Source of the DNA: Fibrobacterota bacterium
GTDB lineage: Bacteria; Fibrobacterota; Fibrobacteria; UBA11236
Assembly: GCA_043753995.1 (NCBI GenBank)
Contig: JAYUVP010000252.1
Span: 1-55,884, forward strand
Length of the DNA stretch: 55,884 bases
Direction of reading: 5' to 3'
Every line of letters starts with the position of its first letter. Position 1 is the first letter of the stretch. Position numbers: made by a program. Below are positions 9,001 through 18,000 of this stretch, one piece after another.

Positions 9001-12000
9001 TAATGGCATGTACGGTTCCCGCGGGAATGAAAAGCATGTCCCCGGTCTTCACCGGTTCGCGGCGCAGCGCCTCTCCGCAGCGATCGGAAGCCAGGATAGA
9101 GGCCATGGCTTCGCGCGGCAGCGATTGCGAGACGCCGAGAATCAGCTCGGCATTTTCAGGCGCGTCGAGCACATACCAGCACTCGGTTTTGGCTTCGCCG
9201 AAAGGCGAGTTATCGCCCGGGTGCACTTGCACCGAAAGCGCTTCTCTTGCGCAAATGAACTTGTATAGCAGGGGAAATTCATTTTTATCGGCTGCACTTT
9301 GGAGACCTATTAAAGAAGGTCCGGCCTTTTCCATCAATTGCCGCAGACTTTGACCGGCGAATTGCCCCACCGCTACGGAGGTGACCGCTTCCCTTCGATC
9401 GGAAACCTCCCAGCTTTCTCCCGCGCGCGTTTGCGACGCATCGCCCTTGCTCAAATGTCGCCAAAGGCCGTCGCCGCCCCAAAGCTTGTCTTGAATGACT
9501 GGAGTGAAAAGCAGGGGTTCGCGCAGTGCCAAGCTCATGCCTTAAAGATAGCCGCGTGACATAACGAGGAGTATGGCTATGGTTCCGATTCCCCCATAGC
9601 CAAAGTTTGAATTCTTAATCTCGGAGAAGGAGGACTAAGCGGCGTTGCGGGCTTTTGCGAGGGTGCGGTGCTCTTCGGTTTGAATGACCGAAGCGAAGGC
9701 ATTCCCAAGATTTAGTGACAGCCCTTTGGGCGACAGGATTTTCTCGGCGAAGGTGTCAAAAGAATCGAAAATGCGACCTTGGAAAATCAGGTTGAATCCA
9801 ATGGTGGCGAATAGGTATTGGATATACTCGCTATTCGAAACGATATAGATGTCGCCACCGCGCTCTTGGACCCTTTTCATATTGTAAATCAGGGCACCGA
9901 TGCCGCCGCTGCAGAGAAAGGTGACCTCGTCGAGATTGAAAATGATATGGGTGCAACCCTGCTCGATCATTTTATGGATTTGGGTATCGAGTATGCGGCT
10001 ATTGTCCCAACCCACCTTACCCTTGACGAGAAAGAGGGCGATATCGGCATTGGCATTGACGCGAAGTTCCATAAAGACTCCAAACCGGCATTTTTATGCG
10101 GCCAGGTTGATATGCGCGCTCGCCACGGGTTTGGCTGAGCCAGCAAATGAATTTTCGAATGCCAGCTCATTATAGGGGGTGGCTTGCCGGTCGGCAAGTT
10201 GGCTTTCCAGCTTTTCAAAAGTGAGCCGATGCGTATCCTGATTCAATTTTGCCGATTCCCCCTGCAAGGGACCGGTGATTTTGGCTGCTTCACCAAAGCC
10301 GCGCTCAATCGCTTCCCTAATTTGCGCCGCAAAGCCATCGGGATCATCGCCATGGGCCCCAGCGAATTGCATAGCGAAATTCACAATGCGATTGGATGTG
10401 TTTTCGGCATTCCAATAATCGCCGGCTTCTTCCCCTTGCTGCACTTCGACGCGCAGATGGGATTCTTCCATGGTGACTTTCAGGGAAAAACCCTGGCCGC
10501 CCAACTCTTCCGTTTCCCCTTGCGAGTCCAGGCCTTGCGAATCTTGCGACGAGGCCTTGCGGGCTGCCACTAATTTTTCCCAAAGGCCTTGTAAACTCTC
10601 GTCTTGGTTCTCGCCCTTGCCCAGCAAGGCTTTCAGCACATTGAGCTGTTGGGTTTGCATTTCCTTTTTCACTTGCTGCATCAATTCATGCAGGTTGCCC
10701 CAAAGATCTTGCTTGCCATCAATAGCCTTGCCGTCTTCGGCGTCCTTGGCCTTTGCCTCACGAGAATCGTCGAGAAAGCTTGGCTTTTCCCCCTGCCATT
10801 GCGACATCTCAAAGGTTTCGCGGTGCGAGGTGAGCTCCAAGGTGTCGCCATCCCCCGACTGGTATTTCAGGGAAAAGGTTTCGCTGGTATAGCCGTAATA
10901 ACTGCCGCTGCTATAACGCGCAGGCAAGGCGCAGGAGTCGCCTTGTGGAGTTGTCGGGGTATTTCCCGGTGTCGCTGGCAAGACCTCCCCAGGCTTGGAA
11001 GAGACCGATGTCCGAGAATCGCAGGTGGGGCTTAGGGTTGCGGTTTCCATGAAAAATCTCCCGGGGAAGGGCTACTGTAAACTTCTCGGAAGAATGCAAG
11101 TGAAACTTTAAGGGTTTTATGTGGATAGGCTGTGGAGACTGCGTGAACAGGTGCGTAAGAACTCAGTTTTTTGAGAAAGAGCGAGATCATTTGGAACCTT
11201 GGGATGCAAGAGGCCGGAGCGTATCTTATCCGGTCCCTCCTTTGCGCTGCTGCTAGGCCCACCCCAAATCTCGAAAAGTCATCGAGTTAAGGTGGGCGAA
11301 GCTTCAGGTCGAATGAGTTGGCAACTTGGAATGACTTAAGCCCTTGAGGTGGACACACGATGCATGACTCGCTCTGGCTGAAGACCCCGGACGCCCCGAT
11401 TTGGACCCGCTGTTTGCAAAGTTTGCGACATCGAGTCCCCGAGTCGGCGCTCAATACTTGGTTTTCAGCTTTGGAGTTGCTTCGCTGCGAAAACGGCGAA
11501 GCCGAAATAGGCGTTCCCAATACCTTTGTTCTGGAATACGTCGATCATCACTATCGCGCTTTGCTCGAAAGCGCCTTCGAGGCGACTCTTGGCCATGCCG
11601 TGAAGGTGACCCTTCGCGTCGCTAAGCCTCCCCAGCTCGAAGTGCTTCGCAAGGACGAGGATTTTGAGCCCGTTACGGCCCCTCCCCGCTCGTCCGACCT
11701 AGCCTGGCGTCGCGAGCGTCCGCGCGTCGACGTGAATATCAGCCTTAGTTCGCGCTATACCTTTGAAAGCTTCGTGGTGGGCGATTGCAACCAATTGGCG
11801 CATGCCGCCTGCATGGCGGTTGCCGAGGCACCCAGTTGCACTAATTTCAATCCCCTAGTGCTTTATGGCGGCACGGGCATGGGCAAGACGCATTTGCTAC
11901 AGGCCATCGCCCATTTTTGCGTCGAAAACGAGACGGCCCGGAAAATCGTCTATCGCACCAGCGAGGAATTCACTCGCGAATACATCGAATTCGTGCAAAA

Positions 12001-15000: not shown

Positions 15001-18000
15001 CAATTCGATAGTTCCAGCAAGACGCATTTCAAGCAAGAAGGGGCGCTGGCTTATATCAAAGGCCAGTATACCCTGGAAGGCGGACGATTCACTTTAGAAT
15101 GCGATTTGCTTGACATTGACACTCAAGAGCGCATCCTGGGGAAAAAATACAGTGGCGCTACCAAGGAAATCCGTGGAGCCGTGCATCAATTTGCCGATGA
15201 AATGGTGTGGCAGCTTTTCGGGGAGCGCGGCATTGCCAAATCGCGTTTGACCGTGGTCACCAAGCGCGGCGGCAATAAGGAAATCATGGCGATGGACTAT
15301 GATGGTTTCGGCACCCAGGACGTGACACGAAATCGGTCCATCAACTTGACGCCGATTTTCATGGGCGGCAAGGACAAAATCATTTATACCAGCTATATCG
15401 CTGGCCTGCCTAATTTTCAACAGGCTGATTTGAATACTGGCAAGAGCAGCCTTTTATTCAAGTCCCAATTCATGTGCTCGGCCCCCAGTTTCAATAAAAT
15501 GGACAAGGAAATCGTCTATGCCGGCAGCCAGGACGGCAATTCCGAAATTTATCGCCGGGCCGCGGATGGTTCGGGCAAGGCAACGCGGCTGACCTTTAAT
15601 GGATCGATTGAAACCTCGCCAAGTTGGTCGCCCAATGGCTATGAAATTGTTTTCATGTCCGATCGAAGCGGCAAACCCATGCTTTATATCATGGACCGAG
15701 ACGGCGCGAATGTACGTCGTATCACTTATGACGGGGATTATTATGGATCGCCAGCCTGGTCGCCCAAGGGCGATCGCATTGCCTGTTCGGTTATGGACGA
15801 GGGCAATAATTTCAGCATTTGGACGTTTTCGACCGAAGGCAAGGATGCCCGTAAGCTGACCACGGGGGGAGGGAGCAATGAAAGCCCATCCTGGAGCCCG
15901 GACGGGCGCCATATCGCCTTTATGTCCACGCGCACGGGCAGTTCTGAAATCTGGGTTATCCAGGCAGACGGAAGCCATCCTCGGCGGCTGAGCTATACCG
16001 GCGGAAATTCCATGCCCTCTTGGTCGGACTTTTAGCCCGTAATTCACTGGGGTGATTTTTTTCAGGAATCTGGAAATCTCAGGGATTTGTTTTAGATTTC
16101 ATTAAAACGCGGATCTTTTAAGGAGTAGCAGATGAAAGTCTCGCATCTTGGCATAGTTGCTAGCCTCGGCTTAAGTGCCATGGTTTTTTTGGGTTGCCCA
16201 AGCAAGCCGCCGGTAACACCACCGGCCGAACCCCCTCCACCTGTGATGCAGCCTCCCGCGCCGACTCCCACTCCGGAAGCGCCCCGTGTGGATGAAGAGG
16301 CCTTGCGCCGTCAGCGCATTCAGGCTCGCATTGCCGAGACCTTTAAGCCGATTTATTTCGACTATGACAAGAGCGCCTTGACTGAAGATGGCAAGCGCAT
16401 CGCTCAAGCCATTGGCGATCTGATGAAGGAAGTTCCTGAAATCACGGCTCGCATCGAAGGTCATGCCGACGAACGCGGAACCAATGAATACAACTTGGCC
16501 CTCGGCGAGCATCGCGCCAAGGCCGTGCAAGATTATTTGGTGAATTATGGCGTGAAGGTCGGGCGTCTTAGCCTCATCAGCTATGGCGAAGAGAAGCCTG
16601 CCGCTGAAGGCCACGATGAATCGGCCTTCTCCAAGAATCGCCGCGACGAATTCACCACCTCGTTCTGAGGTATTTCGAGTCCATTTGTTTTTACAAGGGC
16701 TGCCCACAAGGCAGCCCTTCTTATTTTTCAAAGACCTTTTTAGTGGGTGAGGAAATGGCGATGAAGCGAATCGATTCCCGTTTTTTAGGCCGCGGCCTTC
16801 AAGCCCTCGGCGTGGCGGCTTTCCTGCTCGGCGCGGTTGGGTGTTCCAGCTTTACGGTTTTACGAACCCAGGAAATTAGGGCCGTAGGTGATTCCGTCAA
16901 AGTCGTCGAGCAACGCATTACCGAATTACAAAAGTCGGTGGATGATCTGAATCTCAAGCAAGGCGGAACCTCAAGCAAGATGAAGGCCGACCTATCCCTT
17001 ATGCTTGGCGAATTGAAAGATCAAATCAGCAAGCTGCAAAGCGAAATCGATGAGACCCAATATCGCCTCGGGCAATTGTCGACCAAGCTGGAGCATTTGG
17101 AACAGCGCAAAATTATTGTGGGCAATGATACCGCTACTGCCGTGGCTGGTGGTGCGAATGGCGCCGCTGGAGCTAAACCTGTCGCACCCCTTCGCGTTAT
17201 GGATGGTTTGGATTTGGAGCATGTATTCAATCAGGCCCGCGAGGACTATGTGCGAGGCAAATACGATCTCAGCTATACCGGTTTCAAAACGGTTTATGAA
17301 AAAGACGCCGGTGGCAGCTACAAGGAATTGGCCATTTATTGGATGGGTGAATGCCTTTACAAAGGCGGCAAGCCCGACAAAGCCCTGGAAATTTATGAGC
17401 GTAGCTTGAAAGAGTTTCCTCGCGGCACCAAGGCTTGCTCATCGCGCTTTAAAATCGGCCTGATACAAAATGAGGCGAGAGCCCAAGACAAAAGGGATGA
17501 GGCCTGGGTTGCCTTAATTAAGGAATGCCCCGCCAGCAATGAAGCGGCGCGTGCCCAGGAAATGATGAAGGAATAATGGGATTTAGTGAATGCCCTTGCT
17601 AGTAAGGTAAGGGCCGTATTTCTTGTCAACGCCTAGAATATGTCCCGCCAGCCAGTTTTTTAAGAAATTCCCCAGTTTTTCGCCATTTTCCGCGGTTGGG
17701 GCAGTCAGGAAATCCTGGCCAAGGCGGGTTACCAAATGCAAAAGATTTTTATGGCTTTCTTGATGAGCCACTAAATCCGGATAGGCGTTTTTCTGCATCA
17801 TTTCTTCTTCGTCGGAGAAGTGCTTTTGAGTAAAGCTCAGCAAGTCCTTCAAATGTTTTTGTGCCTCGGGGAAATTCGAATTTTGATGAGCGGCATAAAA
17901 ACCATTCATATAGCCCACGATTTGCTGATGCTGGGAATCGAAGTGGGAAATATTGACGGAAAAAAGCGGTTTCCAATCAAATAGCGACATTTTTAACTCC

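Follow-up and report, generated by a model that had tools for sequence, protein, structure and literature searches.

An ancient second DnaA of the Fibrobacterota with its own DnaA-box array and altered DNA-reading and filament residues

DnaA is normally one protein that acts as initiator, timer and transcription factor, and these jobs are hard to separate because a single DnaA usually does all of them. The phylum Fibrobacterota has two full-length DnaAs and seems to have split the work throughout, with a feedback array on one gene and the origin on the other. New here are a one-way, 11-bp-phased DnaA-box array in the leader of the second gene, dnaA-B, and, in its product, a His434-to-Tyr change together with a rewritten arginine-finger face, the ATP motifs being intact. 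Our preferred reading, which we put forward tentatively, is that copy A fires the origin and copy B is a feedback-dosed partner that joins the A filament.

The window, a stretch of 55,884 nucleotides from a Fibrobacterota bacterium, holds dnaA-B on its forward strand (11360..12757), an open reading frame of 465 aa with DnaA_N, Bac_DnaA and Bac_DnaA_C domains. The product scores 478.7 bits on TIGR00362 (cut-off 343.9), with positions 1-437 of the 437 in the model covered, and the DnaA encoded on contig C138 (447 aa) scores 489.5 bits; the two are 38.8% identical over 456 aa. No third copy was found in this assembly, and a fold search with the window protein returned nothing beyond DnaA. Across 194 Fibrobacterota genomes at least 90% complete, from 19 families (PF00308, E<=1e-10), 173 have two matches, 16 have one, five have three and none has zero; this count takes in one unpublished genome (G167, two matches), which is used in no other claim. 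All five single-contig (closed) genomes keep both copies, including one of only 1.6 Mb. In FastTree and LG+G4 trees the copies separate into clades A and B, each spanning the phylum, with the window gene in B. A recent duplication within this genome is rejected by the AU test (p=3e-52), a sister relationship of A and B is not rejected by it (p=0.44), and the nearest relatives of B outside the phylum are FCB DnaAs bearing the names Marinisomatota, Bacteroidota and Calditrichota/Cloacimonadota. Judged from these trees and counts, the second copy is old and belongs to the phylum as a whole, as the first-pass annotation had proposed, and dnaA is unsuitable as a single-copy marker in Fibrobacterota. 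The same annotation called both proteins bona fide DnaAs, which holds for their full domains and scores and falls short for B at the DNA-reading His434 and at one filament face. Its remark that the trait had gone unnoted is only partly right, since one Fibrobacter genome already stands in a 2011 list of genera with two dnaA genes that also includes Chlamydiae, Desulfovibrio and Pirellula (PMC3080875).

Like those chlamydial, Desulfovibrio and Pirellula pairs, the Fibrobacterota pair is made up of complete dnaA genes that a lineage has retained. For Waddlia DnaA1 and DnaA3, ChIP-seq failed with both proteins (PMC4989314), and the passages on paired genes in that paper and in PMC3080875 assign them no function. 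The Fibrobacterota pair is likely independent of the chlamydial and Desulfovibrio pairs, as judged from trees that hold no identified sequences of either, and it may serve as a model for paired dnaA genes that are still unexplained in chlamydiae and sulfate reducers.

B resembles canonical DnaA (B. subtilis 8BTG, E. coli 1J1V, A. aeolicus 1L8Q/2HCB) in its four domains, its fold, Walker A/B and sensor II, and it has K222 and T225 of the ssDNA loop as well as R399, D433 and T436. In the window protein Walker A/B, sensor I, sensor II and the arginine finger are all intact, and across clade B the Walker A Lys and the first Walker B Asp are present in 60/60 and the sensor II Arg in 59/60; D214, R313 (59/60) and G317 (60/60) are conserved with the Walker Lys. 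B departs from canonical DnaA by carrying Tyr in place of His434 and by its rewritten arginine-finger face. The window protein has Tyr433 at the E. coli His434 position and one Gly fewer before the recognition helix, so that the base-reading set R399, D433, H434, T435 and H439, taken as the mark of an origin initiator, is broken at H434. Tyr occupies this position in 50/60 B proteins, His in 57/57 A proteins, and Tyr was seen in 0/169 of the DnaAs examined outside A and B.

On the filament surface (B. subtilis numbering), R206 is found in 9/60 B versus 44/60 A, R260 in 14/60 versus 59/60, W267 in 0/60 versus 47/60 and H231 in 1/60 versus 34/60; the assignment of residues to the nucleotide-pocket or arginine-finger face follows a figure legend and not measured coordinates. 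R206 and H231, which most B proteins have lost, belong to the essential filament residues of B. subtilis DnaA (PMC6669920), and the essential set R202, R206, F218, H231, L269, G317 and R321 is incomplete in B, the window protein having Y202 and N231. R202 does not discriminate B, because it is also absent from A and from FCB relatives. The arginine finger itself (R264) is present in 60/60 A and 48/60 B, being kept in 32/33 B outside class Fibrobacteria and missing in 11/27 inside it. The window protein retains R206, R260 and R264 and is therefore less remodelled than most B. Outside Fibrobacteria, B has fixed alternative residues (H260, G267, R231, Y202), which would be as compatible with a new interface as with a dead one. 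The domain I PNxF motif is kept in the window protein; its Phe is found in 46/59 B versus 25/58 A, with 23 of those 25 outside Fibrobacteria, and A of class Fibrobacteria has lost the motif. Strong complementarity of A and B in domain IV and at R202 was considered and dropped: it appeared against distant outgroups, and it is weaker than they suggested because several apparent A losses (R202, P406, P423, K443) are common to single-copy FCB relatives.

In the window, four co-oriented DnaA-box-like 9-mers lie on the forward strand at 11120..11161 with an 11-bp period (starts 11120, 11131, 11142 and 11153), about 200-240 bp 5' of the dnaA-B start; the first is one mismatch from consensus and the fourth is weak. 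An RBS-like GAGGTGG (11347..11353, forward strand, by eye) precedes the ATG. Scored with a matrix derived from other genomes, the array ranks among the top three sites of its own genome, with 3 of 10,393,764 positions scoring that high. Strict DnaA boxes occur in 37/56 B leaders versus 3/60 A leaders (27/32 and 10/24 versus 0/33 and 3/27 in the two subsets), and 79/80 B-leader boxes share one orientation. In 20 aligned loci the array lies about 25-35 nt 3' of a TTGACA/TATATT-like pair. By eye this promoter is clear outside Fibrobacteria and unclear in the window, where a promoter scan called none on the sense strand, either around dnaA-B or around tolQ. As a sequence pattern, then, the leader looks like that of an autoregulated dnaA, with boxes just 3' of the promoter, as in canonical dnaA autorepression. 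Bacteria with a single dnaA combine origin linkage and autoregulation in that one gene; here the two properties are apparently divided between A and B. The array is not universal: it was found in 0/5 members of family f12, and only one of five closed Fibrobacteria genomes has a B leader that matches the strict tandem pattern.

In most classes the origin goes with the other copy. A adjoins yidC, yidD or rnpA in 31/33 loci outside class Fibrobacteria and in 0/27 inside it, dnaN is directly 3' of A in 19/27 loci outside that class, and origin-like boxes with AT-rich DNA occupy the gap behind A in 20/28 loci. B was found in a rnpA/yidC-dnaA-dnaN origin cluster in 0/60 loci, such a position not being a strict requirement for an initiator. 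The first-pass annotation had left open which copy goes with replication initiation; the copy associated with the origin in most classes is A, and the pair shows the division of labour that the annotation anticipated. The GC skew of two closed Fibrobacteria genomes changes over at parS, and both dnaA copies lie far from that point; in this class the position of dnaA is in practice no guide to the origin. The origin of the present genome was not located; dnaN, gidA, parAB and yidC sit on four other contigs, and box clusters at the ends of contigs C338 and C87 are candidate origins only. These data also bear on the idea that B is a redundant or alternative initiator, with its box array serving as a second origin. 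Its four domains and equivalog score are retained and tandem boxes in a leader recall those of origins; however, the skew in both closed genomes has a single origin-type switch, located at parS and away from dnaA-B, which speaks against the B leader as origin there. The array, moreover, follows a promoter-like pair instead of flanking an AT-rich unwinding stretch, and the filament residues of B are changed. We regard a second origin as very improbable.

Taken together, the altered DNA-reading residue, the remodelled filament surface and the row of boxes at its own gene suggest that B probably partners or tunes A. We propose that the dnaA locus was duplicated long ago, prior to the split of the phylum, and that its two jobs were shared out between the copies. 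Copy A, an ordinary FCB-type DnaA, would have stayed with the origin and opens it, and copy B would have taken the feedback-controlled promoter. ATP-DnaA would bind cooperatively to the 11-bp-phased array behind this promoter and to a second box pair over the start codon, so that dnaA-B would be silenced at high levels of active initiator. B, presumably still binding ATP and DNA, would most likely dock on an A filament at the origin and end it, given an intact pocket face and a rewritten arginine-finger face. Its domain I may help to bring in the helicase, the A of class Fibrobacteria being without that motif, and the level of B would set when initiation can complete. A complex prediction for A with B reached 0.41 against 0.00 for the best control, with run agreement of at least 62% of contacts and partner pLDDT of at least 82. 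The mark applied was reached by 116/157 solved pairs and 2/215 mismatched pairs, and at scores of 0.60 or below it was reached by only 18 of the solved pairs and by both of these mismatches. The prediction hints weakly at co-assembly of A and B, and its pass may reflect mere likeness because DnaA-DnaA filaments have already been solved.

A stronger form of this proposal, which we think unlikely, is that an obligate two-subunit DnaA starts replication in Fibrobacterota: A would bind and open the origin and give the finger, and B, produced under feedback from the box array, would accept the finger, cap the filament and bring the helicase. In class Fibrobacteria neither would then work alone, A being without sensor-II-side and domain I residues and B without the finger face. 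Archaeal Orc1/Cdc6 paralogs, eukaryotic ORC and the DnaC loader on DnaA are duplicated AAA+ subunits with unequal faces that work jointly, and an obligate A-B DnaA, if real, would be a bacterial parallel of heteromeric ORC. Bacterial DnaA, in contrast, is described as a homo-oligomer; an A-B filament is what we infer here, and we found no two-paralog DnaA filament in the literature searched.

A partner that caps filaments could also act against A. B might be a brake that poisons or ends A filaments or, through its arginine finger, stimulates ATP hydrolysis by A in place of a missing Hda, with repression of dnaA-B by ATP-DnaA making firing switch-like. Hda scored above its cut-off in 0/5 genomes searched, a one-faced subunit lends itself to ending a chain, and B mostly keeps the finger arginine and loses the preceding Box VII arginine, just as Hda does. 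Both are DnaA-derived AAA+ paralogs beside the initiator and B may be a functional analogue, but it scores 92.6 bits on the Hda model (TIGR03420) against a cut-off of 194.8 and has domains I and IV, which Hda lacks. A clamp-binding motif in the B linker was rejected, a QLEVL stretch in the window protein not being conserved by eye. The finger, moreover, is missing from part of the Fibrobacteria B, and many phyla without Hda manage without a second DnaA (control genomes). We consider a dedicated brake doubtful. The pair offers a test system for whether DnaA can function as a heteromer, for the role of His434 in box choice and for initiation timing without Hda.

The box array also admits a reading in which B never meets A. 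DnaA is a known transcription factor (PMC8203912), and B could be a stand-alone, self-repressing one with no oriC role, its rewritten face insulating it from A, Tyr434 shifting its box preference, and its targets, for example the DUF5610 gene or flagellar genes, receiving a report of ATP or cell-cycle state. The fixed interface residues would suit such insulation. TTG-type boxes make up 26/104 in B leaders versus 0/65 on the origin side, which suggests that B may prefer sites away from oriC, and they occur in 14/46 Tyr-type versus 0/8 His-type leaders, the genomes being related and the counts not independent. The DUF5610 gene (10094..11050, reverse strand, 318 aa) shares the intergenic region with the array and is the most widely conserved neighbour of dnaA-B, divergent in 20 of the 52 B loci with enough upstream sequence and in both class groups; an Atlas search with a DUF5610 homologue gave unnamed clusters only. 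In 12/33 loci outside Fibrobacteria, fliD lies within 5 kb of B. Against this, no wide regulon of tandem boxes was seen in this genome, with only three loci at the top array score, in the five closed Fibrobacteria genomes or in five genomes of other classes, where 15 of 16 tandem-box matches fall at dnaA-B (nine) or on the dnaA-A contig (six). B also keeps domain I and all ATPase motifs, and it persists in the 1.6-Mb genome and in lineages where the query used found no DUF5610. We judge a purely transcriptional B to be rather unlikely, and return to B as a partner of A as the preferred reading.

Downstream of dnaA-B, the order tolQ-tolR-tolA-tolB-pal-cpoB reported by the first-pass annotation is confirmed, with six genes (12832-17576) co-directional with dnaA-B after a 74-bp gap (12758..12831). 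The gap contains no DnaA box, a terminator scan found none in it, and a weak sigma-70-like pair (12773-12778 / 12797-12802) is visible by eye and uncalled by a consensus scan. That annotation went on to propose that B links the state of initiation to constriction of the envelope, either as a regulator of tol-pal or through co-expression with it. Adjacency in five Fibrobacteria families (f1, f3, f4, one genus of f5, and f6) suggests an old arrangement in the class, and read-through from the array-controlled dnaA-B promoter into tol-pal could occur in class Fibrobacteria, being conceivable because the gap is so short and the terminator scan empty. However, the idea is weak as the purpose of B because tolQ follows B in only 10/26 loci of the class and 0/28 loci of other classes (absent in 16/26 and 28/28), with tolQ homologues in 75/76 genomes. 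Strict boxes occur in 0/27 and 0/30 loci within 340 nt 3' of B, and the B-tolQ gaps of relatives, 75-370 nt long, have promoter-like elements by eye. We find such coupling improbable. All six genes lie on the forward strand: tolQ-like (12832..13527, MotA_ExbB) and tolR-like (13537..13953, ExbD), whose best NCBIfam matches are TolQ and TolR, below cut-off; a short, proline-rich tolA-like gene (13965..14717) with a TonB C-terminal domain (TonB_C); a tolB-like beta-propeller gene (14692..16035; 299.9 bits, cut-off 343.15), whose true start is probably later than that of the longest ORF; pal (16132..16668), alone above its equivalog cut-off (TIGR02802); and a cpoB/ybgF-like coiled-coil TPR gene (16743..17576), below cut-off. 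Gene order and best family matches agree with the Tol-Pal operon (tolQRAB-pal-cpoB), from which the window differs in its short TolA-like gene and in the preceding dnaA-B, a feature of part of one class only.

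Two complete DnaA proteins are encoded in this genome, as stated in the first-pass annotation: B, from the window gene dnaA-B (11360..12757, + strand), and A, from dnaA-A on contig C138. They score 478.7 and 489.5 bits, respectively, in a profile search with TIGR00362 (cut-off 343.9), carry three Pfam domains each and are 38.8% identical over 456 aa. The predicted structure of B is a DnaA fold (mean pLDDT 84.7; best structural match 8BTG), and its named close relatives belong to Fibrobacteria or Fibrobacterota. The pair is phylum-wide, as had also been claimed: when PF00308 matches were counted in 194 genomes at least 90% complete, the unpublished G167 among them, 173 had two, 16 had one and 5 had three, and all five single-contig genomes, one of them 1.6 Mb, had two. 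Every single-match genome is a multi-contig draft, with A missing in about 11 and B in 5 as judged by E-value alone. Among the five triple-match genomes, one third copy (L003, G186:C108), on a 2.1-kb contig, clusters with outgroups and is probably a binning contaminant, and two others are weak short matches. Proteins P0005, P0010, P0013, P0015 and P0022 (670-1990 aa) hold two DnaA-like stretches and score highly with the B profile.

The second DnaA is indeed ancient. Of the remaining 193 genomes, 59 were hand-picked for spread, each with at least two matches, and A and B were extracted from them, leaving out L003, the foreign third copy, and L090, which had no match; with our own genome this gives 60 pairs, and every pair has one best match to A and one to B. 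A and B separate in FastTree with the long-branch pair of genome G067 as the sole exception; once it is removed, clade support is 93 for A and 99 for B, and IQ-TREE with 12+12 rows gives 95 and 99. Both are placed among FCB-group DnaAs, going by the names of neighbouring sequences. A recent duplication within our genome is ruled out (AU p=3e-52); sisterhood of A and B is neither shown nor rejected (AU p=0.44). In G067 (L054, L055; genus g11), A and B are both highly divergent and the open frame of A has no domain I, as have the A frames of L099 and L101 (genus g29).

Genomes with two dnaA genes are already known and unexplained, and the Fibrobacterota pair is a new variant. The available excerpts report two copies in 40 of 1,067 genomes, including one Fibrobacter, chlamydiae, Desulfovibrio and Pirellula (PMC3080875), ChIP-seq of Waddlia DnaA1 and DnaA3 that was tried and obtained no targets (PMC4989314), and tandem dnaA in Acidaminococcus (PMC4403523). 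The earlier view that the pair had gone unnoticed is only partly right, given the one Fibrobacter. No paper on the phylum-wide pair, on the leader array or on His434Tyr stands among the literature matches listed (40 of 57 and 20 of 1,049 in two of the searches), where subscription journals are sparse and neither supplements nor databases of origins are covered.

The point of interest is an origin-linked A versus a remodelled B that appears to be array-controlled, and not the tol-pal neighbourhood. In Fibrobacterota outside class Fibrobacteria ("other classes"), yidC/yidD/rnpA adjoin A in 31/33 loci, dnaN lies directly behind A in 19 of the 27 loci with enough sequence (gidA in 3 more), and strict DnaA boxes occur within 340 nt behind A in 20/28. 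By eye, trinucleotide-like and AT-rich DNA often comes next to these boxes on the far side from A, an arrangement described for origins (PMC8287927, excerpt). In class Fibrobacteria, A has left the origin cluster: it lies in a yidC/rnpA-dnaN cluster in 0/27 loci. Two closed Fibrobacteria genomes were each sampled for GC skew at 20 windows of 20 kb; the skew passes from minus to plus at 1.26-1.32 Mb in G179 and at 2.175-2.22 Mb in G122, where one window deviates from the pattern, in agreement with parS clusters at 1.292 Mb and 2.205-2.210 Mb. Both genes are far from the switch, A at 3.28 Mb (G179) and 0.447 Mb (G122), B at 0.676 Mb (G179) and the record start (G122). The closed record of G122 opens with dnaA-B (C1:40-1503, L059; a B without the arginine finger), and skew and parS place its origin at about 2.2 Mb; in this class, records begun at dnaA misplace the origin. 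In G149, a cluster of 8 boxes lies 1.2 kb beyond parB. The origin of our own genome was not located; candidate origins or titration sites are box clusters at the end of C338 (6 boxes within 300 nt, L242:3714-3860) and the start of C87 (3 boxes within 300 nt, L243:263-340). In about 18-20 Fibrobacteria loci (L001:1923-2910 and homologues), dnaA-A is oriented divergently to the genes for an unnamed membrane protein, a squalene/phytoene synthase-like protein and an RluA-type pseudouridine synthase.

Ahead of dnaA-B lies an array of four DnaA-box-like 9-mers at an 11-bp period (11120-11161 of the window). Under a matrix derived from other genomes, only 3 of 10,393,764 positions in our genome score as high, two being the array itself; control periods of 10, 12 and 13 give 0, 0 and 2 such positions with the same matrix. 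The next-ranked site, a pair of boxes with 11-nt spacing that precedes our own dnaA-A (L001:1790-1810, C138), is absent from five family relatives. In the 340 nt that precede the Trp codon conserved in domain I, and with four short B loci excluded, strict boxes are found in 27/32 B leaders of other classes (67 boxes versus a shuffled mean of 0.36) and 10/24 of Fibrobacteria, and in 0/33 and 3/27 A leaders; 79 of the 80 B-leader boxes are co-directed. With a matrix built from origin-side boxes only, a phased four-box array beats 30 shuffles in 27/32 and 13/24 B leaders and in 1/33 and 3/27 A leaders. Spacings peak at 11, 14, 22, 33-36 and 44-47 nt, and 20 aligned B loci show a TTGACA/TATATT-like pair, about 30 nt, a box, 5 nt, and then four boxes at an 11-nt period; a further box pair often overlaps the start codon. 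Tandem-box matches in five genomes of other classes fall at dnaA-B (9/16) or on the dnaA-A contig (6/16). Two results count against the array: the strict tandem pattern has 5 matches across five closed Fibrobacteria genomes, one of them in a B leader, and family f12 (L111-L120) has the B array in 0/5. This family has no boxes behind A either, and another box may be recognized by its DnaAs. Phasing at 11 nt marks cooperative ATP-DnaA binding in E. coli oriC. Excerpts of PMC2533591 and PMC8203912 describe how dnaA of E. coli, B. subtilis and other bacteria represses itself via boxes that lie downstream of its promoter, and, judging from its sequence, the array would likewise repress dnaA-B.

Residues were numbered through B. 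subtilis and E. coli alignments. B retains the Walker motifs, sensor I and K222, with sensor II in 59/60 and G317 in 60/60. On the arginine-finger side, R206, H231, R260 and W267 are kept in 9, 1, 14 and 0 of 60 B and in 44, 34, 59 and 47 of 60 A, though the window B itself retains R206, R260 and R264 and the replacements in other classes are fixed, not random. The arginine finger is present in 32/33 B of other classes and 16/27 of Fibrobacteria; essential residues of B. subtilis DnaA include R206, H231 and R264 (PMC6669920, excerpt). Of 145 columns conserved in single-copy relatives, the B clades have lost 16 and 14 and the A clades 7 and 3, and A changes at R202, P406, P423 and K443 are common to FCB relatives. 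Fibrobacteria A has no domain I PNxF motif, N126, F201 or A324, and keeps E314 in 1/27 and G317 in 14/27; the domain I Phe has a role in helicase recruitment. The base-reading residue His434 is kept in 57/57 A and 168/169 other DnaAs, and in B the position is Tyr in 50/60 and His in 8/60. TTG-type boxes make up 26/104 boxes in B leaders and 0/65 on the origin side, and are present in 14/46 Tyr-type and 0/8 His-type leaders (the genomes being related); this bias hints that Tyr434 B reads its own leader, with the reservation that AT content is higher in origin DNA (GC 0.27 against 0.33). It is somewhat unlikely that B is an insulated transcription factor.

The reading we tentatively favor is that A opens the origin, and that B, dosed by feedback, would dock on the A filament through its intact pocket face, terminate the filament and assist helicase recruitment; A-B co-assembly and the sign of the effect of B are what we infer. 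The predicted A-B complex weakly supports such pairing, scoring 0.41 (best control 0.00) with runs agreeing in at least 62% of contacts and partner pLDDT of at least 82; in calibration, scores of up to 0.60 came from 18 solved complexes (of 157) and from both mismatched pairs that passed (2 of 215). The prediction gave no interface, and solved DnaA filaments may explain the score. Alternatively, B could be a brake in place of Hda, for which no match above cut-off was found in 5/5 genomes searched; we consider this unlikely. That B is a second initiator is very improbable.

Six co-directional tol-pal-like genes follow B, of which only Pal passes its equivalog cut-off, and B had been proposed to couple initiation to the envelope via Tol-Pal. 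This proposal is improbable. Among Fibrobacteria loci that are long enough, tolQ lies directly behind B in 10 of 26, to which one short contig can be added, across five families; in other classes it does so in 0/28 loci, though tolQ homologues occur in 75/76 genomes. Thus, the link is an arrangement at class level. None of 57 loci has a strict box behind B. The dnaA-B/tolQ gap shows promoter-like elements by eye in the window and relatives, and neither promoter nor terminator in a consensus scan; read-through into tol-pal, and control by it, is possible, but tol-pal control cannot be the reason for the existence of B. A divergent DUF5610 gene is a more widespread neighbour of B than tolQ (7/22 and 13/30 loci); with the gene at 10094-11050 of the window as query, it was found in 25/76 genomes and 0/30 of family f5. 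In other classes it often lies between dnaA-B and fliD/fliS. A bacteriohemerythrin gene (17583-18059) is near the dnaA-B locus, and a DUF692-type (MbnB/TglH) gene (6845-7726) and a STAS anti-sigma antagonist gene (9635-10072) recur beside dnaA-B in family f1.
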